The position numbers and the translations under genes were made by a program. DNA of 64,000 bases from a bacterium (GTDB lineage Bacteria; Patescibacteriota; Minisyncoccia; Phycocordibacterales; UBA2100), in assembly GCA_030674455.1 (NCBI GenBank), contig JAUSGQ010000020.1, positions 13,461 to 77,460 of the forward strand, given 5' to 3'. Shown in pieces: positions 11,984 through 63,455 of this stretch. The notes beneath the pieces were generated by a model that saw nothing but the letters and a program-made list of their open reading frames with translations, did no database searches and was not told where the DNA came from. Positions within the stretch are counted from its first letter, which is position 1; each line of letters starts with the position of its first letter.

Positions 11984-12007
11984 CCGCCAGAACAAAACTG
12001 ATAACCA

Positions 12008-12170
12008 CAAGCTTCAAGCTCCAAAAGCCAAACTTCCCGCCTGCGCCGAGGCTTCTGCGGGCAGGCAAACAAAATCTCAATGTTTAAATTCCAAACCACC
12101 AAACTGTTTCCGAGTTTGGAGCTTGGATATTGGAGCTTGTTTGATATTTGGAGCTTGGGATTTAGATTTT
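12008..12170. repeat. Intergenic inverted-repeat block, 'TTGGAGCTTG' family, locus 1
   Basis: CAAGCTTCAAGCTCCAAAAGCCAAAC ... GTTTGGAGCTTGGATATTGGAGCTTGTTTGATATTTGGAGCTTGGG. The same word family is at 26982-27117 and 44267-44404. Confidence 0.55.
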
Positions 12171-12227
12171 TGTTCATACTCTTCCGCATACTGGTCATCT
12201 GCGGCTCACTCATGTATTATGTCGCAC

Positions 12228-12368
12228 ATGCCCGGTAGGACAATTTCGAATTGCTTTGTATGAATATTCACCAGCGTACCGCAAGAAATATTTCTCTAAT
12301 CACACTTTGCATGGTCTTTATTATTCCACCGACAACAGTAATTATTCGAAATTGTACTAACCGGGTAT
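12228..12368. repeat. TIR element family 'A' copy 3 (TTCGAA variant, opposite orientation)
   Basis: ATGCCCGGTAGGACAATTTCGAA (12228-12250) and TTCGAAATTGTACTAACCGGGTAT (12345-12368). The terminal ...CCGGGTATG supplies the ATG of the downstream ORF. Confidence 0.75.
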
Positions 12369-14463: not shown

Positions 14464-14491
14464 ATTCTAGTATTTTGCAAAATACTAGAAT
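14464..14491. promoter_or_regulatory. Perfect 28-bp palindrome ATTCTAGTATTTTGCAAAATACTAGAAT (candidate operator), copy 1
   Basis: Located 17 bp upstream of the ArsR-like gene. Identical core at 14776-14803 and 20873-20898. Confidence 0.5.
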
Positions 14492-14507
14492 GGTTTAGAA
14501 TTCTCAT

Positions 14508-14804
14508 ATGCCTGACTTAAACATCAACCCAACAACTAATAATTACCGACGCCTCGAAAGAGTCGTAAAGGGTTTCGCTAATCATCGGCGGTTAGAGATC
14601 TTACATTTGTTACACAAGAGTCCGGAACTTTCAGTTGAGGATATTTCGGAGATATTGGACATCGGGTATGAAAACGCATCCGACCATCTTCGCAAAATGG
14701 CAATCGCTGGTTTAATTCTGAAGCGCAACGAGGGCAACAATGTTAGACACAAACTCACGACGCGCGCAGAATCTATTCTAGTATTTTGCAAAACACTAGA
14801 ATAG
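14508..14804 (+). CDS. ArsR/SmtB-like winged-HTH transcriptional regulator
   Basis: HRRLEILHLLHKSPELSVEDISEILDIGYENASDHLRKMAIAGLI matches the ArsR-type HTH pattern. Confidence 0.6.
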   Translation: MPDLNINPTTNNYRRLERVVKGFANHRRLEILHLLHKSPELSVEDISEILDIGYENASDHLRKMAIAGLILKRNEGNNVRHKLTTRAESILVFCKTLE

Positions 14805-14810
14805 ATTCTC
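14771..14810. promoter_or_regulatory. 40-bp palindrome (1 mismatch) with the same TTCTAGTATTTTGCAAAA core, copy 2
   Basis: GAATCTATTCTAGTATTTTGCAAAACACTAGAATAGATTC overlaps the stop codon of the ArsR-like gene. May act as a terminator hairpin and/or operator. Confidence 0.45.
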
Positions 14811-15029
14811 CTCGGAATTCTCTCGCAATTGCTGCAGCTAGATGCGGACAAAAAGAGTTCTCGCGTTAGTCGCGAATTTTCTAACTTTTTCGCGCCGGTC
14901 AAAGATTTCGTTTCACATCGCTTTAGGTTTTTTCTTCCTCAATCTCCCTGGCCAGCATATAGGACATGGTCCGCTTCCCTGATATCGATGTCCCCGGCTG
15001 CATGTTTTCCAATTCTTTTGTTCCATTTT

Positions 15030-15677: not shown

Positions 15678-18338
15678 ATGCAATACAATATGCAACGATT
15701 CAGTATCGCCGGTATTTGTATATCGGCTCTTATTATTAGCGCAGTGGTTGCTTACGCGGGACTGCAAATAGTTTCCGCTCAAGCGACGGCAACTCTAACA
15801 CTGCATAAAGTAGTAATAAATAACAACGGCGGCGCAGCAACGACCACGGATTGGACGCTTCAGGCAAGCGGGACGACTCCACTTTCGGGAGTAGATGGCA
15901 GTGCGGCAGTAACAAACGCGGCGGTTGAACCCGACACGTACAGTCTTGGCGAATTCGGGCCATCCGGATATACCTCTGCGGGTTGGGTCTGTACTGGAAC
16001 GGGAAATCAAACCGATAGCAACACGATAGTCCTCGGGGCAAATCAGAATGCGACATGTACCATAACGAATGATGATGTTGCGACCGTAAGAGTTCATACG
16101 CTCAAGTACCTCGACGGTTTGGAAGCGACGTCCGCCTCCGCGAACAACTACCAGTTTCCTGTGAGGGGAACATGGAAAGCTTCGAACATCAACGGCGGAG
16201 CTACGACAACCGTTGACTTCCTACTCGGTGTTAATGCGGGCGGTGCTCCTGAACAATATGGCGCGCTCACTGAGCCCCTGGCTTCACCAGCATACTTCTC
16301 CTTATTCGAAATTCCCAACACTGTAGATGGCACGAGCCAGGTCTTGCCGATAGGTGCGCAGTGCGAGGCGGGGAAATACCGGCTGCTTGGATATTCGTCG
16401 AGCGTCGCTGGTTTCGGCGATGCTGCAATTCAGCCCATTAGCACTTCAACGCCCGAATTTATCAACCTCGCGACGGATAGATATCTCATTGTATGGAACG
16501 AGAACTGCGATACGCCGAAACTCACCGTCAACAAGGTTGTGATAAATGACGACGGCGGAGAGGCGACTGTACCCAACTTCACCCTCTTCATTGACAACTC
16601 GACGACAACTTCCGGAGTTGCTTCATCAACTACGGTCGGAGCGCACGTCGTATCTGAAGCGCCAGATTCCGAATACACAGGCACAATCAGCGGCGATTGC
16701 GATTCGAACGGAAATGTGACCCTGGCTGCTGGAGAGAATAAGACATGTACGATTACCAACAATGACATAGCGGCAACAACAACGCCGCCAACCCTGACAG
16801 TAAACAAAGTTGTCATTAATGACGACGGCGGCACGGCGACGACCACAGACTTCACGCTGTTCATTGATAACGCAACGACCACTTCCGGAGTTGCTTCCAC
16901 AACTTCAGTCGGTGCGCACGTTGTATCGGAAGGGGCGCACTCAGGATACGCAGCGACGATTGGCGGTGATTGCGACGCCAGTGGCAACATCACATTGGCA
17001 TCCGGAGAGAACAAGACCTGTACGATTACCAACAACGATATAGCAGCGACAACGACGCCGCCAACTCTGACCGTAAACAAGGTTGTGATAAATAACGATG
17101 GCGGAACGGCAACAACGAGCGACTTTACGCTGTTCATTGACAACGCGACGACCACTTCCGGAACAACTGCCACGACGACAGTGGGCGCGCATGTGGTATC
17201 GGAAGGTGCTCACGCTGGCTATGCGGAAACGATTAGCGGCGATTGCGATTCGAACGGAAATGTGACTCTGGCTGCTGGAGAGAATAAGACATGTACGATT
17301 ACCAACAATGACATAGCGGCAACAACGACGCTGAAGGTTCACATTCTTAAGTACCTCGACGGCGCAATGGCAACGGCTAGCTCATCAAACAATTACCAAT
17401 TCCCGATGACATCGACGTGGCAGACGGCAAATCTTAATGGAGGCGCCACTACTACTGGCAGCTTTGTCCTGGGCAACTTCCACGGCGGAGCCGCGGATCA
17501 ATACGGAGCGGACACATCAGCGATGGAGGCACCGGCATACTACACAACTTCGGAAATAACCGACAATACAAGCTTGGTGTTGCCGCCGGAGGCGCAGTGC
17601 GAGACTGGCAAGTACCGACTGGTTGGATATTCGACTAGTACTATCAGTTTTGCCGACGCTGCGTTACAGCCCTCAAGCACGAGTACGCCGGAGTTCATTG
17701 GATTGAATTCGGATCGCTTCGTTATCGTGCGCGATGTCACATGCACAACGCCGACACCTCCTCCTTCGAATGTGTGCAGCCTCTCGCAAGCACCAAGCGG
17801 ATACACTCTGCAAAATGGAACGCCTGGACATGATAACGTAACGCTCGCTCCCAATACCATGTTCGTGGGAATGGGCGGCAACGATAGAGTAACTGCAGGC
17901 GACGGCAACTACATCATCTGTACCGGCACTGGCAACGATAGGATACGAACGGGGAACGGCGACGTTATCATCGACGCGGGCGACGGTAATAATTCCGTCG
18001 TGACCGGCGACGGCACGGGAGATATCACGACTGGTTCAAAGAATGACAAGATTACGACCGGGACGGGTACTCACACCATCAATGCTGGCGATGGAAACAA
18101 CAACATCCGAACCGGCGACGGCGACCAGATGGTGACGACCGACACCGGCAACGACAAGATAACGACGGGCAACGGCAACGACACAGTATCGGCCGGCAAT
18201 GGTAACAACAATATCAAGACCAATGGCGGCACCGATACCATCACGGCCGGAACAGGGAATGATAAGGTCGACGGCGGGTCTGGAACCGATAGCTGCAATG
18301 CCGATGGCGGCTTCAACTCGGTAACCAACTGTCCGTAA
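15678..18338 (+). CDS. Large secreted repeat protein with tandem DUF11-like domains and RTX-like C-terminal Gly/Asp repeats
   Basis: N-terminal signal or TM segment. Three ~81-aa tandem repeats (TLTVNKVVINDDGGTATTTDFTLFIDNATTTSG...NKTCTITNNDIAATTTPP), flanked by two copies of a ~140-aa domain (VH.LKYLDG...GKYRL.GYS). C-terminal GNDxIxTGxGxDxI nonapeptide-like repeats. Confidence 0.8.
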   Translation: MQYNMQRFSIAGICISALIISAVVAYAGLQIVSAQATATLTLHKVVINNNGGAATTTDWTLQASGTTPLSGVDGSAAVTNAAVEPDTYSLGEFGPSGYTSAGWVCTGTGNQTDSNTIVLGANQNATCTITNDDVATVRVHTLKYLDGLEATSASANNYQFPVRGTWKASNINGGATTTVDFLLGVNAGGAPEQYGALTEPLASPAYFSLFEIPNTVDGTSQVLPIGAQCEAGKYRLLGYSSSVAGFGDAAIQPISTSTPEFINLATDRYLIVWNENCDTPKLTVNKVVINDDGGEATVPNFTLFIDNSTTTSGVASSTTVGAHVVSEAPDSEYTGTISGDCDSNGNVTLAAGENKTCTITNNDIAATTTPPTLTVNKVVINDDGGTATTTDFTLFIDNATTTSGVASTTSVGAHVVSEGAHSGYAATIGGDCDASGNITLASGENKTCTITNNDIAATTTPPTLTVNKVVINNDGGTATTSDFTLFIDNATTTSGTTATTTVGAHVVSEGAHAGYAETISGDCDSNGNVTLAAGENKTCTITNNDIAATTTLKVHILKYLDGAMATASSSNNYQFPMTSTWQTANLNGGATTTGSFVLGNFHGGAADQYGADTSAMEAPAYYTTSEITDNTSLVLPPEAQCETGKYRLVGYSTSTISFADAALQPSSTSTPEFIGLNSDRFVIVRDVTCTTPTPPPSNVCSLSQAPSGYTLQNGTPGHDNVTLAPNTMFVGMGGNDRVTAGDGNYIICTGTGNDRIRTGNGDVIIDAGDGNNSVVTGDGTGDITTGSKNDKITTGTGTHTINAGDGNNNIRTGDGDQMVTTDTGNDKITTGNGNDTVSAGNGNNNIKTNGGTDTITAGTGNDKVDGGSGTDSCNADGGFNSVTNCP
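16500..17340 (+). repeat. Three tandem ~243-bp coding repeats inside the large secreted protein gene
   Basis: ACCGTCAACAAGGTTGTGATAAATGACGACGGCGG... recurs at ~16518, ~16797 and ~17063 with >85% identity. Confidence 0.8.
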
Positions 18339-20528: not shown

Positions 20529-20868
20529 CTTTCTATGCTCGATAATGCCTTATATTAAGCCATTTCTTGAAACTAGCTAGATAATAATACATGAATTATG
20601 ACGGATTTCAAAGAGTTGGGACATACTTTACACACGAAGACAGGATGTTTGTCTTCGTACGGCCCGGGTCGCACCTAGCGGTCCATTTGCGAGTCATTCG
20701 ACTCACAAAAAAGTTCTTTCCGGGAAGTTATTCATAACTTTCCATTTGCGAATCAAACGATTTGCAAAAGCTTTTCGGCAAATTTTCTCTTCCATGAAAA
20801 TTTCCACCACATTTAAAGACTTGAGCACACCCGTTCAAGTCTTTTCCTTATCTGACGCTGATAGAAAC

Positions 20869-20904
20869 CTATTCTAGTATTTTGCAAAATACTAGAATAG
20901 ATTT
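20869..20904. promoter_or_regulatory. Palindrome CTATTCTAGTATTTTGCAAAATACTAGAATAG, copy 3
   Basis: 32-bp perfect palindrome ~70 bp upstream of the DinJ-YafQ module. Identical core to the copies at 14464 and 14771. Confidence 0.5.
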
Positions 20905-24952: not shown

Positions 24953-26980
24953 ATGACAACAAAATTCCTGGATGGCTTAAATGTGGCTCAAAAGCAGGCT
25001 GTCTTGCATAAAGACGGACCGCTGCTAATCGTTGCGGGAGCGGGAGCCGGAAAAACAAAAACTATCACGCACAGAATCGCACAACTAATAGAGAGCGGGG
25101 TGTCCGCACGTTCGATACTCGCGGTTACTTTTACAAATAAAGCTGCTGAAGAAATGCGCACACGAGTACAGAACTTATTACGAGCGGAGGGGGACCTGCC
25201 CGCCGAAGCTTCTGCCTGTGCGTCTTCGCACGCAGACAGGTCGGCGCAGGCGGGGATGCGCGAGCGGGTACTCGGCCTGCTCCCCGAACGACACGGCGGC
25301 CTGCCTGCATCGCAGACGCGACAGGCAGGCTTGCCTCTCATAACGACCTTCCACTCGCTCGGCGTCCGGCTTTTGCGGGAATTCCATGAGGTTGCCGGCA
25401 TCCCGCGCGGTTTTTCCATCTGGGATCAGGATGACAGCACGCGCGCCGTCAAAAATATCCTGAAACAGCTCGATACCGAGGAATGGACTCCGCGGCAGAT
25501 ACTTTCCGCAATTTCCCGAGAGAAAGGAGCGGGGAAGTCGGCTGGTGAATATCGTGAGCGCGCGGAGAACCGCCGCGAGCAGGCAACGGCGCAGGTGTGG
25601 GAGCGCTATGAGAAAATGCTAAAAGATGAGGGGGGATTGGACTTTGATGATTTACTGGTCCGGACGGTCACGCTTTTCCGCGAATCGCCAAAAACGCTCT
25701 CGCTTTTGCAAAATCGCTGGCACTATCTGACCGTTGATGAATATCAGGACACAAGCGGGATGCAATATGAAATGATGAGACTTTTGTGCGGGGATCGTAA
25801 TAATATTTGCGTTGTGGGCGACTTGGACCAATGTATATACGCATGGAGGCAAGCAGAAATTGGAAACTTGTTGTCGTTCGAGCGAATTTTCCCAAGCACA
25901 AAAGTTGTTCGGCTCGAGCAGAACTACCGCTCGACGAGGACCATCCTCGCGGCGGCAAACGCTGTGATAGCAAAAAACGTCAACCGAATTCCAAAAAATC
26001 TTTTCAGCGAGAATGATACCGGGGAGCCCATAACGATTTACGACGCGATGAATGAGCGCGATGAAGCATGGTTCGTCGTGGAAAAATCAGCGGGACTGAT
26101 TGATTCTCGCGTGCCATCGCAGGAAATCGCCGTGCTATATCGTGAGAATGCCATGTCGAGAGTTTTGGAAGAAGCGTTTCTTCACGCAGGTATTCCATAC
26201 CGCGTCTTGGGAACCAGATTTTTTGAGCGTAGAGAAGTGAAAGATGTGCTTTCATATCTGCGCGCCGCACTCAATCCAAAAAGCAAGGGCGATTTCGCGC
26301 GAATCATCGCCGTTCCGCCGCGCGGAATCGGAAAAATCACGCTCGAAAAGTTCTTTAAGGGAGAAACGCTCGGCGCTGCCGGAGTGAAAGTCGCGAAGTT
26401 CCAGGAGTCGCTTGTAAAAATCGGGCATGCAGTGAAAACTTTGCCCGCATCCGAGGCAGTTCGTTTTTGCATTGAAGAAAGCGGGATACAAAAAATGTTC
26501 GACAGCAAAACGGAAGAGGGACGCGAACGGCTCGGTAACGTTCGCGAGCTTGCAAACCTCGCGGCGAAATACGAAAACGATGAGCCGCCATCGGGAATTG
26601 AACGGCTATTGGAAGAGGCGGCGCTGCAGAGCGAGCAGGACGAACTCGACATCGCGAGAGATAAGAGCGGGGTTTCACTTATGACAGTACACGCCTCGAA
26701 GGGGCTGGAATTCGACGCGGTATTCATTGTAGGGCTAGAACAGGGGCTTTTCCCGTCACTGCGAGATGACGGCAGCCGCGACCCGGAAGAAGAGCGGCGG
26801 CTTTTTTATGTTGCCCTTACGCGCGCGCGCAAACATCTTTTTCTTTCATACGCTCATGAGCGCACAAAATACGGCATGAGAGACACTGCCATGCCGTCGG
26901 AATTCCTTTCGGATATTGATTCGCGATTGATGAAACACGCTCTCGATGATAACGGGGGAAAGGAAGACATCATCGAGTAA
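24953..26980 (+). CDS. UvrD/PcrA/Rep-family ATP-dependent DNA helicase (superfamily 1)
   Basis: Motifs I (AGAGAGKTKTITHRIA), Ia (TFTNKAAEEM), II (YLTVDEYQDT), III, V and VI (VALTRARKHLFLSY). Contains an unusual ~50-aa GC-rich insertion between motifs Ia and Ib. Confidence 0.9.
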   Translation: MTTKFLDGLNVAQKQAVLHKDGPLLIVAGAGAGKTKTITHRIAQLIESGVSARSILAVTFTNKAAEEMRTRVQNLLRAEGDLPAEASACASSHADRSAQAGMRERVLGLLPERHGGLPASQTRQAGLPLITTFHSLGVRLLREFHEVAGIPRGFSIWDQDDSTRAVKNILKQLDTEEWTPRQILSAISREKGAGKSAGEYRERAENRREQATAQVWERYEKMLKDEGGLDFDDLLVRTVTLFRESPKTLSLLQNRWHYLTVDEYQDTSGMQYEMMRLLCGDRNNICVVGDLDQCIYAWRQAEIGNLLSFERIFPSTKVVRLEQNYRSTRTILAAANAVIAKNVNRIPKNLFSENDTGEPITIYDAMNERDEAWFVVEKSAGLIDSRVPSQEIAVLYRENAMSRVLEEAFLHAGIPYRVLGTRFFERREVKDVLSYLRAALNPKSKGDFARIIAVPPRGIGKITLEKFFKGETLGAAGVKVAKFQESLVKIGHAVKTLPASEAVRFCIEESGIQKMFDSKTEEGRERLGNVRELANLAAKYENDEPPSGIERLLEEAALQSEQDELDIARDKSGVSLMTVHASKGLEFDAVFIVGLEQGLFPSLRDDGSRDPEEERRLFYVALTRARKHLFLSYAHERTKYGMRDTAMPSEFLSDIDSRLMKHALDDNGGKEDIIE

Positions 26981-26981
26981 G

Positions 26982-27117
26982 CTCCAAGCCACAAAATCCA
27001 AGCCACAAACAAGCTACAATATATAAATTCTAAAAATCTAAACGAAATGCGTCTTGTTGTTTATGAGTTTAATTATTGAGATTTTGTTTGGATTTTGGTA
27101 TTTGGAGATTGGAGCTT
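26982..27117. repeat. Intergenic inverted-repeat block, 'TTGGAGCTTG/CCAAGCC' family, locus 2
   Basis: GCTCCAAGCCACAAAATCCAAGCCACAAACAAG ... TTGTTTGGATTTTGGTATTTGGAGATTGGAGCTT ends at the rsmA ATG. Confidence 0.5.
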
Positions 27118-27975
27118 ATGCGGCATAGACCAAAACTTGGACAACATTTCCTGAAAGCTAAATGGGCTGCGCGCTCGCTCGCTTATGCAGTTGGCATTTC
27201 TCCGGGCGACACAGTGCTAGAAGTCGGGCCTGGCAAAGGAGCTCTCACGCGCGAGCTACTTGCGATTGCTAAAGATGTCGGCGCAAAAGTTGTGGCGATT
27301 GAAAAAGATGAGGCGCTGGTCGCACATCTCGGTGAAATATTCGCAGATGAGATATCTTCGGGAATTCTCATAGTTGTTGCGGGAGATGTACGCGATGTTT
27401 ACCAAGGAGAGACCTTAAAATCCCCAAGGTCTCACCTTGGAGACGCGACCGCGGCACTATCTGGAAAATATGTTGTGGCGGCAAATATTCCGTACTACAT
27501 AACCGGAGAAATCATCCGCCAATTTCTAACAGCAGAGATACAGCCGCGCACGATGGCGCTTCTTGTGCAAAAAGAAGTCGCGCAAAGGGTTGTAGCTAAA
27601 CCCGCCGGAGGCGGGTCCTCCTCCGGAGGAAAGGAGAGCTTGCTTTCGCTCTCCGTTAAAGCGTACGGAACTCCGAAAATAGTTGTGAAAGTTCCACGCG
27701 GGAATTTCTCGCCGGCGCCGAATGTTGATTCGGCCATTCTTCTGGTAGAAAATATTTCCAGAGACTTTTTCTCTAGTATTAGCGAGGAGCTATTCTTCAA
27801 GGTGATACACGCCGGGTTCAAATCGAAAAGAAAATTCCTGCTCAATAATCTCGCTGGCACATTCGAGAAGGAGATTGTCGCGCGAGCATTCACCGAGTGC
27901 GGCATCAGTATGAAAGCCCGCGCTGAGGACGTACCGCTCGAGAAATGGAAAGCCCTTGCATTACACCTCGCTTAG
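27118..27975 (+). CDS. rsmA: 16S rRNA (adenine1518/1519-N6)-dimethyltransferase
   Basis: RPKLGQHFL at the N-terminus, the SAM-binding VLEVGPGKGALT, and NIPYYIT. Start at Met 27118. Confidence 0.85.
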   Translation: MRHRPKLGQHFLKAKWAARSLAYAVGISPGDTVLEVGPGKGALTRELLAIAKDVGAKVVAIEKDEALVAHLGEIFADEISSGILIVVAGDVRDVYQGETLKSPRSHLGDATAALSGKYVVAANIPYYITGEIIRQFLTAEIQPRTMALLVQKEVAQRVVAKPAGGGSSSGGKESLLSLSVKAYGTPKIVVKVPRGNFSPAPNVDSAILLVENISRDFFSSISEELFFKVIHAGFKSKRKFLLNNLAGTFEKEIVARAFTECGISMKARAEDVPLEKWKALALHLA

Positions 27976-29580: not shown

Positions 29581-29860
29581 CGAAATACCCAAGGTCACAA
29601 ATGCGCGCATAGCGTGGCGGCCTGTCATAGTCGAGCGTAGCGAAGCAATCCAATTCCTTTCTTCTGGATTGCTTCGCGTTGCTCGCAATGACGATTCTTC
29701 GAAGGTTAAATTTTCCCCTATTGGTCGAAACTGTGGTCAGTTTCGACACGATTTTTGCTCCGTGGAGTACCACGGAAAAAATCGCCTACTGCCTAGTGCT
29801 TTTTCTTTTCCTTACTGCGTTTAGACCTCTTGCCTATTCATTGGATGTTATAATTTTCAT

Positions 29861-34977: not shown

Positions 34978-35715
34978 ATGAACGACGACAAAAAATTAGA
35001 CGATATTCTCAAAGAGCGGCTCGCGAGCTTGCCATTGCCAGTGCGTAATGCGATTACGTCAGCAGACGTAGAAAAAGGTCTGCGCGAACTTGCCGACAAA
35101 CACAAACTTCACTTGGACCAGTGGGAAACCTTAGAGAATGCGGTAATGTTAACGCTTATCGGCTTCAAAAAGATAGCTGATTTGAGCGAAAACATCGAGA
35201 AAGAAGTCGGCGTAGACGCAGAGACAGCGCGAGCTATTGCGTCGGATATCACGGTTATTGTTTTTGAACCAATCCGCAAAGAGTTAGAGCGCGAACTGGG
35301 AGAACCGGTGACGGAAGAAGTTGGTGAAACGACCACCGTTGCTGAAGAACCCGCGCCAGTGGAAAAACCTATCGCGGAAAAACCGGTATCCAGTGAGTCC
35401 ATACTGAATACAGAATACCGGATACCGAATACTATTCCCGCGCGGGAAATAATCGATAACCTTCCTCCGCGGCCGATTGAAGTTAAGCCCGCAAATCAGC
35501 CCGCAGCCGGTAACCCGCAGCCGGTAGTCAGAGAAGCGGCTTCCATACAGAATACAGAATACAGAATACCAAATACATCTCCTTCTACTCCGCCTCCAGC
35601 TCCGCTAATGGCAAAATCAGTGCGCGCCGTTCCGTCGCCCGCGTATGCGCTGGACACGAAAAGCCACGAGCGCACAGCTATCGACGACGATCCATATAGG
35701 GAGTCGATAGCATAG
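34978..35715 (+). CDS. Hypothetical protein with internal repeat (NTEYRIPNT x2)
   Basis: 245-aa ORF. ESILNTEYRIPNTIP and ASIQNTEYRIPNTSP are internal repeats. Confidence 0.4.
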   Translation: MNDDKKLDDILKERLASLPLPVRNAITSADVEKGLRELADKHKLHLDQWETLENAVMLTLIGFKKIADLSENIEKEVGVDAETARAIASDITVIVFEPIRKELERELGEPVTEEVGETTTVAEEPAPVEKPIAEKPVSSESILNTEYRIPNTIPAREIIDNLPPRPIEVKPANQPAAGNPQPVVREAASIQNTEYRIPNTSPSTPPPAPLMAKSVRAVPSPAYALDTKSHERTAIDDDPYRESIA

Positions 35716-36146
35716 GTGTCAGGTTCCAGGTTTTAGGTTCCAGACAAAAATGCAAAGCATCAATTCGTACAAAGACCTTATAGTGTGGCAAAAAGCTATT
35801 GATGTTGTCGCTGACACATATGCCATCACGCGAAAGTTCCCGTCTTTTGAGAACTTCGGACTTTCATCACAGATGCAACGAGCTGCTGTTTCCATCGCCG
35901 CGAATATCGCGGAGGGACGTGGCCGCGGGACACGAACCGATTACGCGCATTTTTTGGATATATCGAATGGATCAGTATCGGAACTGGAAACGTTGCTAAC
36001 AATTGCGAAGCGTTTGTCGTACTGTAGAGAAGAACAGTGTAGTAGAATGGAGGAGCAGTTAGGTGAAATCGGGAAAATGCTCGGTACTTTGCGTGCTAAG
36101 TTACGACGCTTCTCCTAACACCTGAAACCTGTCACCTACAACCTAC
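35715..36146. mobile_element. IR-flanked mini-element carrying a four-helix-bundle gene (copy 1)
   Basis: Left GGTGTCAGGTTCCAGGTTTTAGGTTCCAG and right CTAACACCTGAAACCTGTCACCTACAACCTAC are imperfect inverted repeats. The same IR words occur without cargo at 36599-36725 and 48926-49030. Confidence 0.45.
35750..36118 (+). CDS. Four-helix-bundle protein (PF05635-like, '23S rRNA intervening-sequence protein' family)
   Basis: YKDLIVWQKAIDVV...SQMQRAAVSIAANIAEG...FLDISNGSVSELETLL matches the family signature. Confidence 0.7.
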   Translation: MQSINSYKDLIVWQKAIDVVADTYAITRKFPSFENFGLSSQMQRAAVSIAANIAEGRGRGTRTDYAHFLDISNGSVSELETLLTIAKRLSYCREEQCSRMEEQLGEIGKMLGTLRAKLRRFS

Positions 36147-36151
36147 CCAAT

Positions 36152-36598
36152 ATGCAATTCCAAGTTCCGCAATTTATAGAGGTTGAAGATAAGATTTTCG
36201 GGCCTCTTACTTTTAAGCAGTTCGTGTATGTCGCGGGCGGGCTTGGCACGTGCTATCTCTTCTGGAAAATTCTGCCTGTGCTCATATCGGTTCCGCTCAT
36301 TGCGGTGACAGCTGCGCTTGCGGCCGTTCTCGCGTTTTTCCAATTCAACGGAAGACCGTTTGTCGCCGCGCTCGAGCACGGCTTCTATTTTCTTTTGCGG
36401 AGCAAACTCTACCTCTGGAGGAATGATGAGAATGGAAGGGAACAGGCGGCAACAAAAAAACAGCTTCTGGACAAACAGGCGCAGGAAAAGGGGAAATCTC
36501 TCGTATATATTCCGAGCCTTTCCAACAGCAAACTGCACGATTTAGCCTGGAGCCTAGATATAAAAGAACAAATCGCCGAGAGCGAGGCGAGTGAATAG
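36152..36598 (+). CDS. PrgI/VirB3-like small conjugal-transfer membrane protein
   Basis: IEVEDKIFGPLTFKQFVYVAGG followed by two TM helices matches the PrgI-family architecture. Immediately upstream of the VirB4 homolog. Confidence 0.5.
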   Translation: MQFQVPQFIEVEDKIFGPLTFKQFVYVAGGLGTCYLFWKILPVLISVPLIAVTAALAAVLAFFQFNGRPFVAALEHGFYFLLRSKLYLWRNDENGREQAATKKQLLDKQAQEKGKSLVYIPSLSNSKLHDLAWSLDIKEQIAESEASE

Positions 36599-36725
36599 GT
36601 GATAGGTTCCACCCAGTAGGTGATTCTGCTAAATCAGGTGCTAGGTACTAGGTTAAAATCAAAACAATGAAACTTCAAGAAATCCATCTCCCTGACACCT
36701 GTAACCTGACACCTATAACCTAATC
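36599..36725. repeat. Empty copy of the GGTG.(T)AGGT ... CCTGACACCTGTAACCT inverted-repeat element
   Basis: GGTGATAGGTTCCACCCAGTAGGTGATT...CTGACACCTGTAACCTGACACCTATAACCT, with no cargo ORF. Confidence 0.45.
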
Positions 36726-36727
36726 CT

Positions 36728-37378
36728 ATGCCCCAATCTCTAGCCAGCAAAAAATCAACGCAGGATTTCGTGCCAGTGCGCGAGGTGCGCGACGGAATTG
36801 TCGTTCTCAAAGACGGCGGCCTGCGCGCGGTACTTCTCGCGTCCTCAATCAACTTCGCTCTCAAATCGGACGACGAACAGACCGCTTTCATAACTCAATT
36901 CCAGAGCTTCCTGAATTCTCTTGATTTTTCCGTACAGATATTCATAGAGTCGCGTATGCTGGACATCCGCCCTTATGTCGCCACGCTCGAGGCTGCGCAC
37001 AAAGAGCAGTTGGACGACCTAATGCGCGTTCAGATACGGGAGTACATCGAGTTCATCAAGAGCTTTACAGAGACCGCCAGCATTATGACGAAGAATTTCT
37101 TCGTGGTAGTGCCGTATTCAACTGGAGGAATAGGTGCGGGACTTTCGGGGCATTCTTCGTTCCTGCCGTGGAAAAGAAAAAAAGGTTCCTCCGAAGAAGA
37201 AAATAAATCGTTCGCAGAACAAGTGTCCCAGCTGGAACAGAGAATCGGGATTGTTCAACAGGGGCTCGTGCGCACCGGCGTCCGCACCGTCCAGCTTGGA
37301 ACGGAAGAGACCATTGAACTTCTCTATAAATTATTTAACCCGGGAGAGGAAGGGAAGCCGATGGTACTTGAAAAGTAA
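36728..37378 (+). CDS. VirB4-like protein, N-terminal fragment (split gene)
   Basis: DFVPVREVRDGIVVLKDGGLRAVLLASSINFALKSDDEQTAFI matches the extreme N-terminus of Gram-positive-type VirB4 proteins (IPY..I.DGI...DG.Y.K...INF.L.S..E). The ORF stops exactly at the boundary of the inserted element. Confidence 0.55.
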   Translation: MPQSLASKKSTQDFVPVREVRDGIVVLKDGGLRAVLLASSINFALKSDDEQTAFITQFQSFLNSLDFSVQIFIESRMLDIRPYVATLEAAHKEQLDDLMRVQIREYIEFIKSFTETASIMTKNFFVVVPYSTGGIGAGLSGHSSFLPWKRKKGSSEEENKSFAEQVSQLEQRIGIVQQGLVRTGVRTVQLGTEETIELLYKLFNPGEEGKPMVLEK

Positions 37379-37850
37379 ATCCGAAATCCGAAGCACGAAA
37401 TCCGAAAAAATCCTAAATCCAAATATGAAAAAAGAAGACCGGAAATATGACTTGGAAGAAAGAAGTTTCTTGTTCGCAAAGAACGTGCGGGCCTTTGTGA
37501 AAAACTTGCCACGTTCCATTACCAGTATAGAAGACACGAAGCAACTTGTGCGGTCATCTGGGTCAATTGGCGCAAATTATATTGAAGCGAACGAGTCGTT
37601 GAGCAAGAAAGATTTTTTGCTACGAATACGCATCGCGCGAAAAGAGGCAAAGGAAAGCAAATATTGGCTACGACTCATAGATACCAATACTGATGGCTTA
37701 GAAAAGCGACGAGCGGAACTAGAACAGGAAGCCACAGAATTGATGATGATTTTAAGTTCGATTATGAGAAAATATGTTTAAAATTTCTTTCTTTTTTGGT
37801 TTTCGGCATTTTTTCGGATTTCGGATTTCGGATTTCGTGCTTACTATATA
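37379..37850. mobile_element. IR-flanked mini-element carrying a second four-helix-bundle gene, inserted in the VirB4 homolog
   Basis: Left AAATCCGAAATCCGAAGCACGAAATCCGAAAAAATCC and right GGCATTTTTTCGGATTTCGGATTTCGGATTTCGTGCTTAC are imperfect inverted repeats. Confidence 0.5.
37425..37781 (+). CDS. Four-helix-bundle protein (PF05635-like), copy 2
   Basis: ERSFLFAKNVRAFVKNLPRSI...RSSGSIGANYIEANESLSKKDFLLRIRIARKEAKESKYWLRL is the same family as 35750-36118. Start taken at MKKEDRKYD. Confidence 0.65.
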   Translation: MKKEDRKYDLEERSFLFAKNVRAFVKNLPRSITSIEDTKQLVRSSGSIGANYIEANESLSKKDFLLRIRIARKEAKESKYWLRLIDTNTDGLEKRRAELEQEATELMMILSSIMRKYV

Positions 37851-37854
37851 GTCT

Positions 37855-39762
37855 ATGTCCCTCCTCGACCTCTTCAGAAGCAAAAAGACAAACGCCGAAC
37901 CGTCGGCGCTTCCCATACTCCCCGAGGAAATTTATTCGGCCGGCGTTTTGGATTTGCAGGATGTCATCGCTCCGCACGCGCTAAAGATAAGCTCGCGCGA
38001 ACTGGACTTGGGCGAGCGCATCGCGCGCACATTTTTTGTTATTTCCTATCCGCGCTTTCTCACCACCGGCTGGTTCGCGCCCATCATCAACATGGACAAA
38101 GTCCTGGACATTTCCATATTCATTCACCCGATGGACACGAGCGAAATGCTCCGAAAATTCCAAAAGAAAGTCGCCGAAGTGCAGAGCCAGATATCCACGC
38201 GCGAGCAAAAGGGAATGGTGCGCGACCCGATGCTCGATACCGCGTATTCCGACCTCGAGGGTCTGCGCGACTCTCTCCAGCAGGCGCAGGAACGCATCTT
38301 TGAGGTCGGCCTGTATCTCACCGTATACGGCAACACCCGTGAGGCGGTAGATAAAATAGAATCCGAGATACGCTCTGTTCTTGAATCGCGCTTAGTCTAC
38401 ATTCGCCCCGCGCTTTTTCAGCAAGAGCAAGGATTCAGGAGCGTCCTTCCGCTCGGCAATGACGAGCTCGATGTTCATACGAAATTGAATTCCGCTCCGC
38501 TCTCCTCTATCTTCCCATTTATCTCATTCGACCTCACTTCAAACCGCGGAATTCTCTACGGCATCAACCGGCATAATTCTTCGCTTATTCTCTTCGACCG
38601 ATTCTCGATGGAGAACTATAACTCGGTCATGTTCGCGAAATCGGGTTCTGGAAAGAGCTACATGACGAAATTGGAAATCCTGCGCTCGCTCATGTTCGAC
38701 ACGGAAGTCATCGTCATAGACCCTGAACGCGAGTATGAATATCTGGCGTCTACCGTGGGCGGCCGGTATTTCAATATTTCACTTTCATCGGAACACCACA
38801 TCAATCCGTTCGATCTTGCTATCCCGCGCGAAGACGAAAATCCTGCGGATATTTTGCGAAGCAACATCATTACTCTCGTCGGACTTTTCCGCATTATGCT
38901 TGGAGGCCTCTCTCCCGAGGAAGACGCTATTATCGACAGGGCGATAACTGAAACGTACGCGCTTAAAGACATTACGGCGGAAGCAAACTTCGCGGCAATT
39001 GAGCCGCCGCTACTCTCCGACTTTGAGCTGGTGCTCTCCGGCATGGAGGGAAGCGAATCGCTCGTACAGCGACTTTCGAAATATACTAAAGGTACGTGGT
39101 CGGGATTTATGAACAGGCCGACGAACGTGGACATGAATAAAAAACTCATCGTATTTTCCGTCCGCGATATGGAAGACGACCTGAAGCCCATCGCGATGTA
39201 CATCATTACGCACCACATATGGAATGTCGTGCGCAAAGAACTTCGCAAGCGCCTACTCGTCATAGACGAGGCGTGGTGGATGATGCGCTCCGCGGACACC
39301 GCCTCATTCCTGTTCTCAATCGCAAAAAGAGGAAGAAAATATTTCCTCGGTATTTCCACGATAACGCAGGACGTTTCGGACTTCTTGAACTCTCCGTACG
39401 GCCTGCCCATGATAACGAACTCGTCCATACAGATTCTTTTGCGGCAATCCCCGACTTCGGTGGACCTCGTCCAGCAGACTTTCAAGCTTTCGGATGAAGA
39501 AAAATATCTTCTGCTCGAGTCGGACGTGGGAGAGGGAATATTTTTCGCCGGACTAAAGCACGTGGCCATCAAAGTCATCGCTTCGTACACGGAAGACCAG
39601 ATAATCACATCCGACCCGTCGCAAATTCTTGCAATCCGCAAGGCAAAACAGGAATTGGCAGATGCAGAGAGCGCCCAGGCTACGTCTGCGATTACAACTG
39701 ACGCCGCTTCCTTCGCCCCGGCTCAGAATACCGCCGCCAGTTCTACAGCCACGCTCAAATGA
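37855..39762 (+). CDS. VirB4-like T4SS ATPase (C-terminal 635 aa including the ATPase domain)
   Basis: IAPHALKISSRELDLGERIARTFFVISYPRFLTTGWFAPIINMDKVLDISIFIHPMD is a VirB4-typical segment. Walker A MFAKSGSGKSYMTK, Walker B RLLVIDEAWWMM. Together with 36728-37378 it would make ~851 aa, a normal VirB4 length. Confidence 0.8.
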   Translation: MSLLDLFRSKKTNAEPSALPILPEEIYSAGVLDLQDVIAPHALKISSRELDLGERIARTFFVISYPRFLTTGWFAPIINMDKVLDISIFIHPMDTSEMLRKFQKKVAEVQSQISTREQKGMVRDPMLDTAYSDLEGLRDSLQQAQERIFEVGLYLTVYGNTREAVDKIESEIRSVLESRLVYIRPALFQQEQGFRSVLPLGNDELDVHTKLNSAPLSSIFPFISFDLTSNRGILYGINRHNSSLILFDRFSMENYNSVMFAKSGSGKSYMTKLEILRSLMFDTEVIVIDPEREYEYLASTVGGRYFNISLSSEHHINPFDLAIPREDENPADILRSNIITLVGLFRIMLGGLSPEEDAIIDRAITETYALKDITAEANFAAIEPPLLSDFELVLSGMEGSESLVQRLSKYTKGTWSGFMNRPTNVDMNKKLIVFSVRDMEDDLKPIAMYIITHHIWNVVRKELRKRLLVIDEAWWMMRSADTASFLFSIAKRGRKYFLGISTITQDVSDFLNSPYGLPMITNSSIQILLRQSPTSVDLVQQTFKLSDEEKYLLLESDVGEGIFFAGLKHVAIKVIASYTEDQIITSDPSQILAIRKAKQELADAESAQATSAITTDAASFAPAQNTAASSTATLK

Positions 39763-41106: not shown

Positions 41107-41118
41107 TCTTTTAATTGT

Positions 41119-41404
41119 ATGCCCAGACACTCACTTTGGCATCGCCTCTTTATGAAAACAATCCTTGTGAGCAAACTTCGAACAATGGGACAAGTTCAGG
41201 TTACATCTAGGTATGCTTCGGCAATAAAGGTTCCTCGCGGCAAGCCGCGAGGAATTAGTGGAACTCGCTTCGCTCGTTCAGTCGCGCAGCAAGCTGCGCG
41301 GTATTCCACCTGTGTTGCGTCTTCGCTCGGACGAAGTGTGAGCAAGCTCCCACTTCGCTCCTCGCTAGCCACAATAAATTATGCCAAAGTTAGTGTACGG
41401 GTAT
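41119..41404. repeat. Long (286-bp) relative of TIR element family 'A' with structured interior
   Basis: Left ATGCCCAGACACTCACTTTGGCAT, and the right end ATGCCAAAGTTAGTGTACGGGTAT is its inverted repeat (20 of 24). The interior holds several GC hairpins (CCTCGCGGCAAGCCGCGAGG; CGCGCAGCAAGCTGCGCG; CGTCTTCGCTCGGACGAAG). The terminal GGGTATG supplies the ATG of the downstream gene. Confidence 0.6.
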
Positions 41405-42713
41405 GATATCCACAAAAACATTTCTTCATTACGCCATAACTATCACGATCATTCTCCTCGTTGGAGGACTCGCCGGATGGTATTACTTTCTCAACAAGCA
41501 AAAGCAGGCAATTTCCACGAGCGACACGGGGCGGGGGTTAGACTCGCCTGCGCCCGCTTTCGGCGGCAGTACGGGGAGCAATTACAGCAACGTCTCCGGA
41601 ACAATCTCCGATGGCACGCCCGTCAATCAGGCCAAAGCACCGCCCCGGATTTGGCAGGTTACAAAAACGCCGGTCGCAGGCATGGGATTTGTTACAAGCA
41701 CTTCTTCAGCCGCAACAACATCAGCTGCGCAATTGTATTTCGTTGAGCGCGCAACCGGATACATCCTAAAAGCCGATACGGAAACCAGCCTGATATCTCG
41801 ACTTACAAACAAACTTTTTGCCCGCACATATGAAGCGTCGTTCAGTTCGGACGGTTCCGTAGTTCTCCGCTCAATCGACGACCGGGGCAATATCACGAGC
41901 TTTGCCGGTGATAATCCTCTGCAAAGTGCAGCGACAGCCTCCACTTCTCCAACGAACTCTAAAGAGCTCGCTGGGGGCCCACTTTCCGGCAAATATTTGG
42001 AGCCCAATATTCGTATGATCGTGCCGATGCAGAAAACACGTGAATTGCTTCTTCTCATACCGAATGCGGGCGGGGGATCAAGCGTGGTTCTATCGTCATG
42101 GAACGGTATTAAACAAAAAACTCTTTTTTCATCGCCTCTTGCTGGATGGAAACTCTTCTCCCTCTCGGATGGGCGGATATTTCTTTCTCTCTTGCCTTCT
42201 GATGATGCGGCAGGCTACGCGTTTGAGTTAAAAAACGGCACCCTGGTACCGCGTTTAAGGAACATCCCCGGGCTGACGTTCCTGCCGCGAACATCGTCGG
42301 ATGCCGTATTATTTGGCGAATCGAGCGGAAGGCTTTCGCTCTTCTCAAGCGCCAAAGAAGGGGCCGAGAGGGTGTATCTTCCGCTTCAAACTGTAGCTGA
42401 TAAGTGCGTATGGGCTCCCTTAAACGCGCCGCTTCGCAGAGCGTCGGGCGAGCGACTCATCGCGTATTGCGCTGTTCCGCAATATGTCGCGTCAAGCAAT
42501 TTTCTTATGGATTGGTACAGGGGAGCTCTGCGCACCTCTGACTCATGGTGGCGCATTGATACTGCTACCGGAGAAGTAACGCCTCTGCTTGAGACCGAGG
42601 AAACTGACAAGGTTTTTGATGTGGAAAATCCGATCATTGACAGCTCGGGAGAGCAAATAGCTTTTATGGACGCGAAAGACAAGTCTCTGTGGCTTCTTCG
42701 CATAACACAATGA
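41403..42713 (+). CDS. Hypothetical membrane-anchored exported protein
   Basis: N-terminal TM ITITIILLVGGLAGWYYFL. 436 aa and Ser/Thr-rich. Confidence 0.45.
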   Translation: MISTKTFLHYAITITIILLVGGLAGWYYFLNKQKQAISTSDTGRGLDSPAPAFGGSTGSNYSNVSGTISDGTPVNQAKAPPRIWQVTKTPVAGMGFVTSTSSAATTSAAQLYFVERATGYILKADTETSLISRLTNKLFARTYEASFSSDGSVVLRSIDDRGNITSFAGDNPLQSAATASTSPTNSKELAGGPLSGKYLEPNIRMIVPMQKTRELLLLIPNAGGGSSVVLSSWNGIKQKTLFSSPLAGWKLFSLSDGRIFLSLLPSDDAAGYAFELKNGTLVPRLRNIPGLTFLPRTSSDAVLFGESSGRLSLFSSAKEGAERVYLPLQTVADKCVWAPLNAPLRRASGERLIAYCAVPQYVASSNFLMDWYRGALRTSDSWWRIDTATGEVTPLLETEETDKVFDVENPIIDSSGEQIAFMDAKDKSLWLLRITQ

Positions 42714-44238: not shown

Positions 44239-44266
44239 GGGGCAACTATACCTCTCGAAAGAGAAA

Positions 44267-44404
44267 ATCCCAAATCTCAAAGTCCAAATCACAAACAAAC
44301 CTCAATATTCAAACATCTAATATTGAAAACGAATTCTGTTTTGTTTTTTTGAGCTTTAATTGACTGGAGCTTGTTTGGAGCTTGGAATTTGGGATTTGGA
44401 GCTT
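44267..44404. repeat. Intergenic inverted-repeat block, 'TTGGAGCTTG' family, locus 3
   Basis: CCCAAATCTCAAAGTCCAAATCACAAACAAACC ... CTGGAGCTTGTTTGGAGCTTGGAATTTGGGATTTGGAGCTT extends into the yidC 3' end. Confidence 0.5.
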
Positions 44405-45839: not shown

Positions 45840-46090
45840 AAATGCGTATAGCGTATGGAGTATAGCGTATGGAGGGCGTGAAGGGAAGTAGCAGTGCCAA
45901 TCTACAAATTTATCCCAATCTACAAATGTCTACGAATGACATATACGTCCATTTGTAGTTATTTGTAGTATTCGAATCATTCGTAGATTGGAACATTTCA
46001 TTGTCCCCACGCTATCCACACCTTGTGAACACCCGCGACAAAAAGCGCGGGACTATACCTTCGCGGCGGGACGCGTATAATGACCGGTCT
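45840..46090. other. Putative chromosomal replication origin (oriC)
   Basis: Lies between rpmH and dnaA. Tandem TATAGCGTATGGAG x2 (45848-45875), six 9-mers TCTACAAAT/TCTACGAAT in inverted arrangement (45901-45987) and a DnaA-box-like TATCCACA (46013-46020). Confidence 0.55.
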
Positions 46091-46229
46091 ATGCCCGGTA
46101 GGACAATTTCGAATCGTCTCATATGAATATATTCCTACCGAATCAAAAAAATGCTGGACGAGTAGAGGGGCAATGCCCTTGTGCGATTATTTGCGACCGT
46201 AATAATTCGAAATTGTACTAACCGGGTAT
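46091..46229. repeat. TIR element family 'A' copy 6 (TTCGAA variant) abutting dnaA
   Basis: ATGCCCGGTAGGACAATTTCGAA (46091-46113) and TTCGAAATTGTACTAACCGGGTAT (46206-46229). Internal CATATGAATAT is shared with copy 3. Ends in the annotated dnaA ATG. Confidence 0.8.
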
Positions 46230-48925: not shown

Positions 48926-49030
48926 AAGGTGTCAGACAAATAGGTGTCAGGTTCCAGCTGTCAGGTGTCAGGAGTATCCGAACCACAAGTATTTTCCTGT
49001 AACCTGTAACCTAAAACCTGTAACCTGATT
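48926..49030. repeat. Empty copy of the GGTGTCAGGT ... AACCTGTAACCT inverted-repeat element between convergent dnaN and PBP1A
   Basis: GGTGAAAGGTGTCAGACAAATAGGTGTCAGGTTCCAGCTGTCAGGTGTCAGG ... CCTGTAACCTGTAACCTAAAACCTGTAACCTG. Confidence 0.5.
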
Positions 49031-52713: not shown

Positions 52714-52799
52714 ACCAGCGAAGCTGGAATTTGCAAACGCTAAATACCAATTTGCAAAGAAATCACAAGAATTAAAACCCAAACGAGATTCTGGAAATT

Positions 52800-52830
52800 G
52801 AGACTTGGAATTTTGTTTGCAAATTGCAAA
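52800..52830. repeat. 31-bp repeat CTTGGAATTTTGTTTGCAAATTGCAAATTGG (reverse complement of 22668-22698)
   Basis: Exact match to the purA-upstream repeat. Confidence 0.6.
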
Positions 52831-52845
52831 TTGGATTTTGCAAAT

Positions 52846-53322
52846 TTATCTTCTGTGTCTGGCCAAATGCGTAACGCCCACCGCTATCGCGTCGTACTCG
52901 TCGTCATATTTAATTTCTTTTTCGATTTTCACAAGCGCGTGCAGCATTTTGGCCACTTGTTGTTTGCCCGCACCGCCATGGCCTCCGGCGGCGCTTTTGA
53001 TTTCTCCCGGAGTGTATTCAAAAACCGGAATACCGAGACTCGTCGCCGCCTGTATGAGCGCTCCGCGCACTTCGGCGACGCGCATCACCGTCTTTTGATT
53101 TGTGCTGAAATAGAGTTTCTCCAACGCAACCGCCTCCGGTTTATAGATATTTGCCAGCCGCGTGCATTCATTGGCGACGATTCCAAGTCGCGCAGTAAAT
53201 TCAGTATCTTTTGACGTTTCTATGCACGCGGAATAAAGCAGTGTTTCTTTTTCCCCGCCAACGCGCTCAAGCACCGCGACTCCACATCTGCCGTAACCGG
53301 GGTCAATGGCAAGAACTTTCAT
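52846..53322 (-). CDS. ruvC: Crossover junction endodeoxyribonuclease RuvC
   Basis: MKVLAIDPGYGRCGVAVLE with catalytic Asp/Glu pattern. Length 158 aa. Confidence 0.9.
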   Translation of the reverse strand: MKVLAIDPGYGRCGVAVLERVGGEKETLLYSACIETSKDTEFTARLGIVANECTRLANIYKPEAVALEKLYFSTNQKTVMRVAEVRGALIQAATSLGIPVFEYTPGEIKSAAGGHGGAGKQQVAKMLHALVKIEKEIKYDDEYDAIAVGVTHLARHRR

Positions 53323-53375: not shown

Positions 53376-53789
53376 ATGTTCCATATCCCTATACTTAGTT
53401 ATATGACTAAGTATTGGAATGCTGAACGGGTACAAAGGGTAAGGCAAAGAAAGGTCAAAGCAGCCGCGCACGAGGCCGAACGGGCAAAATCCTTGCGCGA
53501 ACAACAACGTACTTATACGCAAGGAGATTCCCAAAAAAATTCCAACCTAATGCTGGACGCCCTCGGTCTTCCGCTCCGACGGCAAATGGCCGCACGCCTG
53601 CGTGAAGGCGGGGCGATGTCACTTTCGAAGCTTGTAGAACCATTTAGCATCACATTGCCAACCGCGCTCGTGCATTTGGAGGCGCTTGAGCGAGCGGGGA
53701 TTGTCGTTACTCATAAACACGGACGTGTGCGCATGTGCGTATACAACAAAAAGGCTCTCGAAGAGCTTGCGGCTTGGCTTACCAAATAG
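53376..53789 (+). CDS. ArsR-family HTH transcriptional regulator
   Basis: LDALGLPLRRQMAARLREGGAMSLSKLVEPFSITLPTALVHLEALERAGIVV matches the ArsR/SmtB wHTH pattern. Confidence 0.65.
   Translation: MFHIPILSYMTKYWNAERVQRVRQRKVKAAAHEAERAKSLREQQRTYTQGDSQKNSNLMLDALGLPLRRQMAARLREGGAMSLSKLVEPFSITLPTALVHLEALERAGIVVTHKHGRVRMCVYNKKALEELAAWLTK
53391..53414. promoter_or_regulatory. Palindrome ATACTTAGT-tatatg-ACTAAGTAT at the 5' end of the ArsR-family gene
   Basis: 9-bp perfect arms. The related 19-bp-arm palindrome AATCCCGATACTTAGTTAAT|TAACTAAGTATCGGGATT lies 3' of the gene (53801-53838). Confidence 0.45.
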
Positions 53790-53800
53790 GCGAAATATTA

Positions 53801-53838
53801 AATCCCGATACTTAGTTAATTAACTAAGTATCGGGATT
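53801..53838. terminator. Perfect 38-bp palindrome between convergent ArsR-family gene and yebC (bidirectional terminator and/or operator)
   Basis: AATCCCGATACTTAGTTAATTAACTAAGTATCGGGATT shares its GATACTTAGT core with the upstream site. Confidence 0.5.
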
Positions 53839-63321: not shown

Positions 63322-63334
63322 CGTATGGAGTAAG

Positions 63335-63374
63335 GCCTCTCCTCGGGAATTCTGCATTTTGAGGTGAGGCCTTG
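63335..63374. repeat. Hairpin AGGCCTC...GAGGCCT nested in inverted TATAGCGTATGGAG / CTCCATACGCTATA arms, after polA
   Basis: The 20-mer AGGCCTCTCCTCGGGAATTC is the reverse complement of 23164-23183. The flanking TATAGCGTATGGAG 14-mer also occurs twice at oriC (45848-45875). Confidence 0.55.
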
Positions 63375-63455
63375 AGTATTCTCTCCATACGCTATACTTT
63401 ATACTGTATGTTGTATTTCTACAGCGGTACTGACACAAAAAAGGCGCGGGGAGAG

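Follow-up and report, generated by a model that had tools for sequence, protein, structure and literature searches.

A two-gene VirB4 module of Patescibacteria with a probable rRNA intervening-sequence-type element between its genes

The 64,000-nucleotide stretch of DNA analyzed here (positions 13,461 to 77,460 of contig JAUSGQ010000020.1, assembly GCA_030674455.1; below, the window) comes from a bacterium of the Patescibacteriota and encodes a VirB4-type ATPase of a type IV secretion system (T4SS) in two open reading frames (ORFs). These, ORF1 and ORF2, are separated by a small insert that is flanked by inverted repeats and carries a gene for a four-helix-bundle protein. The arrangement raises the question of whether a mobile insertion has broken the ATPase gene or whether the ATPase is naturally made in two parts. 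The results very probably describe a normal two-gene VirB4 module of Patescibacteria, in which a selfish element of the rRNA intervening sequence (IVS) type has settled in the spacer between the stop codon of the first gene and the second gene's start codon.

The VirB4 gene pair in the window and in related genomes

The genes of the module are as follows.

36152..36598, plus strand: PrgI/VirB3-like small membrane protein, operon partner 5' of ORF1 (PF12666 PrgI, E=1.2e-9)
36728..37378, plus strand: ORF1, stand-alone VirB4 N-terminal-domain protein, TrsD-like, 216 amino acids (aa), with NCBIfam matches colinear with the VirB4 N terminus
37855..39762, plus strand: ORF2, VirB4-type T4SS ATPase body, 635 aa (NF045971; PF19044, E=8e-25)

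The ORF map places both genes at these coordinates, and the translation of ORF2 contains the Walker A motif GSGKS and the Walker B motif LLVIDEAWW. The coordinates, lengths, motifs, and peptides quoted in an earlier note on this DNA are all present as described there. ORF2 scores 365.7 bits against NF045971, the model of the CD1110-type VirB4-like ATPase (curated cut-off, 325), and covers model positions 185 to 733 of 752, while positions 2 to 109 are matched by the separate ORF1, colinear with the ORF2 match and not overlapping it. ORF1 also matches positions 100 to 233 of the mycoplasma VirB4 model NF045975, and PF26593 ("TraC-like") is precomputed on all of its listed homologs. When the two products are concatenated, residues 1 to 815 align in one high-scoring segment pair to residues 1 to 796 of P0216, with 48% identity. 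P0216 is a rare fused homolog of 797 aa, a real gene that adjoins PrgI in a metagenome-assembled genome (MAG) of Patescibacteria. The colinear NF045971 matches and this single alignment bear out the assignment of ORF1 to the N-terminal domain of VirB4 and of ORF2 to its ATPase.

ORF2 does not carry the N-terminal and ATPase domains on one polypeptide, and the same holds for all of its counterparts in 87 related Kaiserbacteria/Paceibacteria loci, which comprise 80 species representatives and seven contigs of close relatives (L001 to L007). In every one of the 87, the N-domain gene ends at a stop codon and a separate ATPase gene starts, with a gap that is mostly between −4 and +30 bp. The best 120 homologs of ORF1 are all 196 to 240 aa long and come from Kaiserbacteria/Paceibacteria. 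A wider search, exhaustive over representatives at 50% identity and taken to the best 150 clusters, down to about 35% identity, retrieved stand-alone N-domain proteins in 149 of these 150. The 35 clusters with lengths of 260 to 600 aa show no match to the VirB4 ATPase body and are therefore not truncated fusions.

The four-helix-bundle gene is absent from the junction in L007 (93% identical), in L001 (89%), and in the complete Kaiserbacteria genome L004 (CP066682.1), where the gap between the N-domain and ATPase genes is 3 bp. The C terminus of ORF1 (…NPGEEGKPM…) and the N terminus of ORF2 (MSLLDLF…LPILPEE…) are unchanged between relatives that bear the insert and relatives that are free of it. 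The comparison of loci shows that the two-gene split of VirB4 is ancient and was not caused by the insert. Other T4SS inner-membrane genes accompany ORF2: the PrgI/VirB3-like gene, which lies directly 5' of the N-domain gene in every relative inspected, and, in relatives, a T4SS_pilin-like gene downstream.

Both genes evolve under strong constraint. Relative to L005, the ratio of nonsynonymous to synonymous substitution (dN/dS) is 0.05 for ORF1 (dS, 0.68) and 0.03 for ORF2 (dS, 0.88), and both halves of VirB4 are functional and under strong purifying selection. The second option of the earlier note, that VirB4 works here as a split protein, is correct but had already been published. According to a 2025 survey, the T4SS component found most often in Patescibacteria is a homolog of TrsD with a remote relationship to the VirB4 N terminus (PMC12102498); it usually adjoins VirB4, and in S. 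epibionticum it is essential (PMC12102498). The split VirB4 is therefore known biology and typical of Patescibacteria. The staphylococcal conjugation systems of the pGO1/pSK41 type, with TrsD/TraD and TrsE (VirB4), likewise have a VirB4-N-terminus homolog of about 200 aa directly upstream of the ATPase and beside PrgI/VirB3. In such systems a few bases lie between the two genes, whereas here they are separated by a 476-bp element. At the membrane, the products of ORF1 and ORF2 presumably form a non-covalent assembly together with PrgI/VirB3. Since a VirB4 in two ORFs is the rule in Patescibacteria and no lesion, annotation pipelines ought to avoid labeling it a pseudogene.

The element in the spacer

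Three features make up the insert.

37374..37411, plus strand: left arm, tandem heptamers AAATCCG AAATCCG AAGCACG AAATCCG, overlapping the ORF1 stop codon TAA at 37376-37378
37425..37781, plus strand: gene for a four-helix-bundle protein of 118 aa (S23p, or "23S rRNA intervening sequence protein," family; PF05635, TIGR02436)
37808..37845, plus strand: right arm, (CGGATTT)3 CGTGCTT, complementary to the left arm and ending 9 nt before the ORF2 ATG

The protein matches PF05635 with an E value of 1.1e-15 and 58.2 bits (cut-off, 33.8), which upholds its earlier description as a PF05635-like four-helix bundle, and TIGR02436 with an E value of 6e-21 and 74.7 bits (cut-off, 24). Its closest solved structure is PDB 2RLD (E=1.5e-12). 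The inverted repeats reported to flank the insert are also real. The two arms of 38 nt are 84% complementary, with exact cores of 16 to 17 nt, and their alignment score is 54, against a mean of 12.4 and a standard deviation of 2.5 in 5000 pairs of flanks taken from the window at the same spacing. Tandem repeat analysis finds AAATCCG in 4.4 copies and TTTCGGA in 3.7 copies in the arms.

The stop and start codons abut the arms, as had been claimed, although the boundaries differ in detail: the element measures 472 bp, but the spacer (37379 to 37854) measures 476 bp, the left arm includes the stop codon, and 9 nt separate the right arm from the ATG. Since the element is limited to the spacer, where it begins at the stop codon and stops 9 nt short of the following start codon, both host genes are intact. 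The element sits between two protein-coding genes and not inside a 23S or 16S rRNA gene; an Rfam scan at gathering thresholds found no rRNA or other family in the window, and a tRNA scan was likewise empty. It contains no transposase. Element and gene have the same orientation as the operon, and a scan for promoter and terminator consensus sequences detected no promoter within the element or directly ahead of it, with regional site counts no higher than in shuffled sequence. In the predicted RNA fold, the arms pair as a terminal stem that encloses the ORF, with a minimum free energy of −140.9 kcal/mol (z=−2.99).

The order ORF1, element, ORF2 was assembled independently in L005 (an NCBI MAG) and L006 (an ENA contig). 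Compared with L005, the four-helix-bundle ORF has a dN/dS of 0.15 and a dS of 0.60, similar to the host genes, and the non-coding arms are 94 to 95% identical (left flank, 94%) despite a synonymous dS of about 0.6 to 0.9. The insert protein and the arms are thus both under constraint.

A further contig, L169 (Logan SRR13727527_21238), is 100% identical to the window over ORF1 and ends 27 nt past the ORF1 stop codon, within the heptamer arm. Repeats of this kind appear to interrupt assembly from short reads, and MAGs may contain too few of them.

A tentative course of events can be outlined for the element. Without a promoter of its own, it would be transcribed by read-through of the operon, and its arms would pair in the RNA to a stem of about 38 bp, as the model of the fold suggests. 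By analogy with rRNA IVSs, RNase III might cut this stem, so that the cistrons would be separated and the mRNA for the four-helix-bundle protein released. Alternatively, the stem could bring the upstream stop codon next to the downstream start codon, and an ancestral coupled translation of the two VirB4 parts would be kept. The four-helix-bundle protein may recognize the heptamer arms of its own element.

Related elements, dispersal, and alternative explanations

The architecture of the insert indicates that it is an rRNA-IVS-type element within an mRNA operon. The IVS of the Coxiella 23S rRNA comprises 428 nt, with a 28-bp inverted-repeat stem that is cut by RNase III, an S23p four-helix-bundle ORF, and tandem heptameric repeats (GACAGAT, two to three copies) before the start codon (PMC4990558). 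The 23S rRNA IVSs with an S23p ORF, from Coxiella burnetii, Leptospira, and others (PMC4990558), and the insert share a size of about 430 to 470 nt. Both have a terminal inverted-repeat stem of 28 to 38 bp, tandem heptamers on the 5' side, and a PF05635 ORF of about 120 aa, and both have the orientation of a strongly transcribed host unit, on which they presumably depend. They differ in location, the insert lying in the spacer of a protein-coding operon and not in helix 25 or 45 of 23S rRNA. They differ also in the state of the gene, since the Coxiella ORF is reported as decaying and untranslated (PMC4990558), whereas the ORF of the insert is under purifying selection. Cleavage by RNase III belongs to the Coxiella IVS and is conceivable for the insert. 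ORFs of the 23S_rRNA_IVP type have been seen in rRNA insertions of bacteria of the candidate phyla radiation (PMC11270868). A literature search on PF05635, on "four helix bundle protein," and on heptamer repeats returned no such elements outside rRNA or in mRNA operon spacers; its coverage was incomplete, and an earlier description is possible.

Two other kinds of repeats offer partial parallels. As an analogy only, repetitive extragenic palindromic (REP) sequences and their REP-associated tyrosine transposases (RAYTs) also consist of a small gene between inverted copies of a short repeat, together with genome-specific gene-less hairpins scattered between genes. In contrast to a RAYT, the gene of the insert encodes a four-helix bundle without a known catalytic motif and not a Y1 transposase, and the repeats are tandem heptamers and not single palindromes. 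Cyanobacterial short tandemly repeated repetitive (STRR) sequences are intergenic tandem heptamer repeats. The TAACTGA heptamer repeats of Beggiatoaceae are intergenic as well (PMC4679880). Both kinds of arrays resemble the arms in their 7-nt period, in often abutting or overlapping stop codons, and in lying near the next start; unlike the arms, they are described as direct and have no inverted partner or enclosed four-helix-bundle gene.

Heptamer repeats are a property of the whole window, in which 17 period-7 tracts occur against 1.2 in shuffled sequence, while periods 5, 8, and 10 give 0 to 1. The tracts form hairpins within stop-to-start spacers, and two of these features lie immediately upstream in the same operon.

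35713..36138, plus strand: second element of the same class, with a 122-aa four-helix-bundle gene at 35750-36118 and arms at 35713-35737 and 36114-36138 (PF05635, E=1.7e-38)
36597..36716, plus strand: gene-less heptamer-repeat hairpin in the PrgI/ORF1 spacer, with arms AGGTGATAGGTTCCA... and CCTGACACCTGTAACCTGACACCTAT

The second element has arms of the AGGTGTC type and occupies the spacer between a 245-aa ORF and PrgI. The gene-less hairpin at 36597 to 36716 shares its heptamer family (AGGTGTC/AGGTTCC) with these arms, and so does another at 48947 to 49028. Across genomes, gene-less hairpins share on average 15.8 7-mers with the arms of a nearby four-helix-bundle element when both come from the same genome, and 2.55 when they come from different genomes (permutation P<1e-4). 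The loops of the gene-less hairpins resemble the ends of four-helix-bundle genes more than shuffled sequence does in just 2 of 13 cases.

The junction between the N-domain and ATPase genes is occupied in other species as well. About 16 loci have inserts of 60 to 194 bp there, mostly hairpins with heptamer arms, each with its own heptamer, and a few (e.g., L026, L027, and L038) without obvious heptamer periodicity. In two more species, L065 and L078, the same junction holds other four-helix-bundle genes, enclosed by heptamer arms that also differ. All 23 four-helix-bundle genes across the T4SS loci are co-oriented with their operon, and about 20 of 22 have inverted arms with a period of 7.

The same kind of element is found in many other operons. 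A metagenome scan with the insert protein retrieved 80 relatives with 58 to 81% aa identity, and about 60 of 78 have arms made of the same heptamers (AAATCCG, AAATTCG, AAGCACG, and AATATCG). Mostly, only a few bases separate the beginning of these arms from the upstream stop codon, and they end 3 to 30 nt before the downstream start. Neighbors predominantly have the orientation of the element (51:6 on the upstream side and 50:14 on the downstream side), and 116 flanking proteins fall into 91 clusters. Host junctions confirmed with Pfam include GatC|GatA, L7/L12, NusG|L11, LeuC|LeuD, PurA|GuaB, and S16. The 91 flanking contexts demonstrate that the element has spread, not the mechanism by which it spreads. 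The classical IVS architecture also occurs between the genes of protein-coding operons, where ORF and arms are selected and the arm sequence tracks the protein clade.

From these contexts a wider proposal can be framed, which is possible but more doubtful than probable. Genes of the PF05635 family with heptamer arms would form a general IVS-type class that colonizes the spacers between stop and start codons in operons with strong transcription (rRNA, ribosomal-protein, T4SS, gatCA, and leuCD). Every clade of the protein would pair sequence-specifically with a heptamer "dialect" of its own and would maintain or spread gene-less hairpins as RAYTs do REPs. If so, the "IVS protein," an orphan for 30 years, would gain a function. 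The many natural contexts, with simple reporter designs, offer ways to probe IVS proteins and stems.

Several results weigh against the reading of a two-gene module with a settled selfish element. Complementarity between an element's own arms is not above that between arms of different elements (38.1 versus 39.6, P=0.89, in the CGAAA-arm family), so that there is no element-specific compensatory covariation that would prove the pairing to be selected; what is conserved in this family is the sequence itself, not just the pairing. No target-site duplication or clean pair of empty and filled sites was found among the relatives, since in the nearest relatives that lack the insert another hairpin occupies the site. 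With a dS like that of the host genes, the element at this locus is an old, vertically inherited resident and not a recent insertion. On the side of the gene pair, ORF1 reaches only 30.9 bits against the TrsD/TraD model NF041427, far under the NCBIfam cut-off of 200. ORF1 is a remote relative and not a member of that subfamily model.

Among the alternatives, the one with the most in its favor treats the hairpin as a structure of the host, such as an mRNA stabilizer, an attenuator, or an RNase site, that tunes the ratio of TrsD to VirB4 and whose four-helix-bundle gene has been domesticated. The gene-less heptamer hairpins at the same junction in about 16 other species would fit such a role, as would arms that are better conserved than synonymous sites in an element inherited vertically between the window and L005. 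Similar hairpins stand at other junctions of the window, including between convergent genes. Yet the junction hairpin is absent in about 65 of the 87 species, and the heptamers vary by species while matching the four-helix-bundle element of the same genome. The same four-helix-bundle clade and arms recur in 91 clusters of flanking genes, and in L001 a four-helix-bundle element at another junction has decayed and been invaded by a GIY-YIG gene. These observations leave the host-structure explanation with a small share of the probability.

That a continuous virB4 was cut by a mobile insertion, with the ATPase inactivated or only recently forced to work as two pieces, draws on the local fit of stop and start codons to the arms of the element and on the existence of the fused homolog P0216. 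The same stop and start are nevertheless present in all 87 relatives, mostly without the insert, and the ORF termini are unchanged. The low dN/dS values (0.03 to 0.05) and the deep, already published family of stand-alone N-domain proteins likewise speak against it. Related loci that are split and free of the insert refute the disruption by a mobile insertion that the earlier note had offered as its first option. An uninterrupted ortholog in related genomes, which it had suggested seeking, does not occur among the 87 loci, and naturally separate genes are what it had itself named as contradicting disruption. This explanation is very improbable.

Equally hard to credit is the idea that the four-helix-bundle gene encodes the Avd accessory protein of a diversity-generating retroelement (DGR). 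DGRs are common in this radiation, and the upstream paralog at 35750 to 36118 weakly matches bAvd (PF22296, 32 bits, with a cut-off of 40) and NF033474 (45 bits, with a cut-off of 80). The insert protein, on the other hand, has no Avd match, no gene in the surrounding 5 kb or so, whether of the window or of L001 to L007, has a recorded reverse transcriptase domain, and no pair of template and variable repeats was seen in the repeat analysis. Least probable of all is an assembly artefact or a chimera built from repeats, which the break of the otherwise identical contig L169 at the heptamers right after ORF1 might suggest, but an NCBI MAG and an ENA contig, assembled independently, have the same arrangement, and the substitutions are distributed across the three genes.

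Other repeats and small elements in the window and at neighboring junctions

Further gene-less tandem-heptamer hairpins lie in spacers of the window at 12007-12140, 26978-27118, 44265-44397, 48947-49028, 52728-52846, and 63316-63397. They mostly begin at or near a stop codon, and two lie between genes that appear convergent, as judged from mechanical ORF coordinates only. Direct tandem-heptamer arrays (GAATACC/GAATACA) are also present inside the 245-aa ORF at 34978 to 35715, at 35398-35433 and 35542-35577. Both translate as NTEYRIPNT, and the homolog in L116 has PDTRYQIPDT at the matching place. Heptamer arrays thus expand also in the low-complexity tail of this protein.

The spacer before PrgI holds different genes in different relatives. 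In L001 (3875-4466), a four-helix-bundle element has left its 3' remnant and its right arm; the element is interrupted by a GIY-YIG gene of 96 aa with its own inverted repeat, GCGAGCGTAGCGAAGCAATC, which recurs as a gene-less hairpin in the window at 29632-29685. In L004 (CP066682.1, 3640-3727), the same spacer carries two copies of a TACAAGGTTCGACCTTGTA hairpin, followed by the gene of an IS200-like Y1 transposase. No heptamer arms were found on other cargo genes at this neighboring junction, as the GIY-YIG gene of L001 has its own inverted repeat and the hairpins of the Y1 transposase of L004 are unrelated. Small selfish genes of several kinds thus seem to accumulate at the junctions of the T4SS operon.

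Other long inverted repeats of the window were considered as the same type of element and rejected, being palindromes repeated on either side of ordinary genes (ArsR-type helix-turn-helix [HTH] and HAD hydrolase). Long palindromes such as ATTCTAGTATTTTGCAAAATACTAGAAT stand on both sides of small ArsR-type HTH genes, with a third site by a RelB-like gene (14464-14814, 20865-20904, and 53385-53838), and could represent operators or bidirectional terminators. A different element of about 140 to 290 nt is present in five copies (335-472, 499-646, 12227-12368, 41115-41408, and 46090-46229), with conserved inverted termini ATGCCCGGTAGG... and ...CCTACCGGGTAT and no Rfam match. Finally, an 886-aa ORF (15678-18338) contains, at 16530 to 17331, 2.9 copies of a 273-bp unit (77% matches), and the encoded protein therefore has repeated domains.

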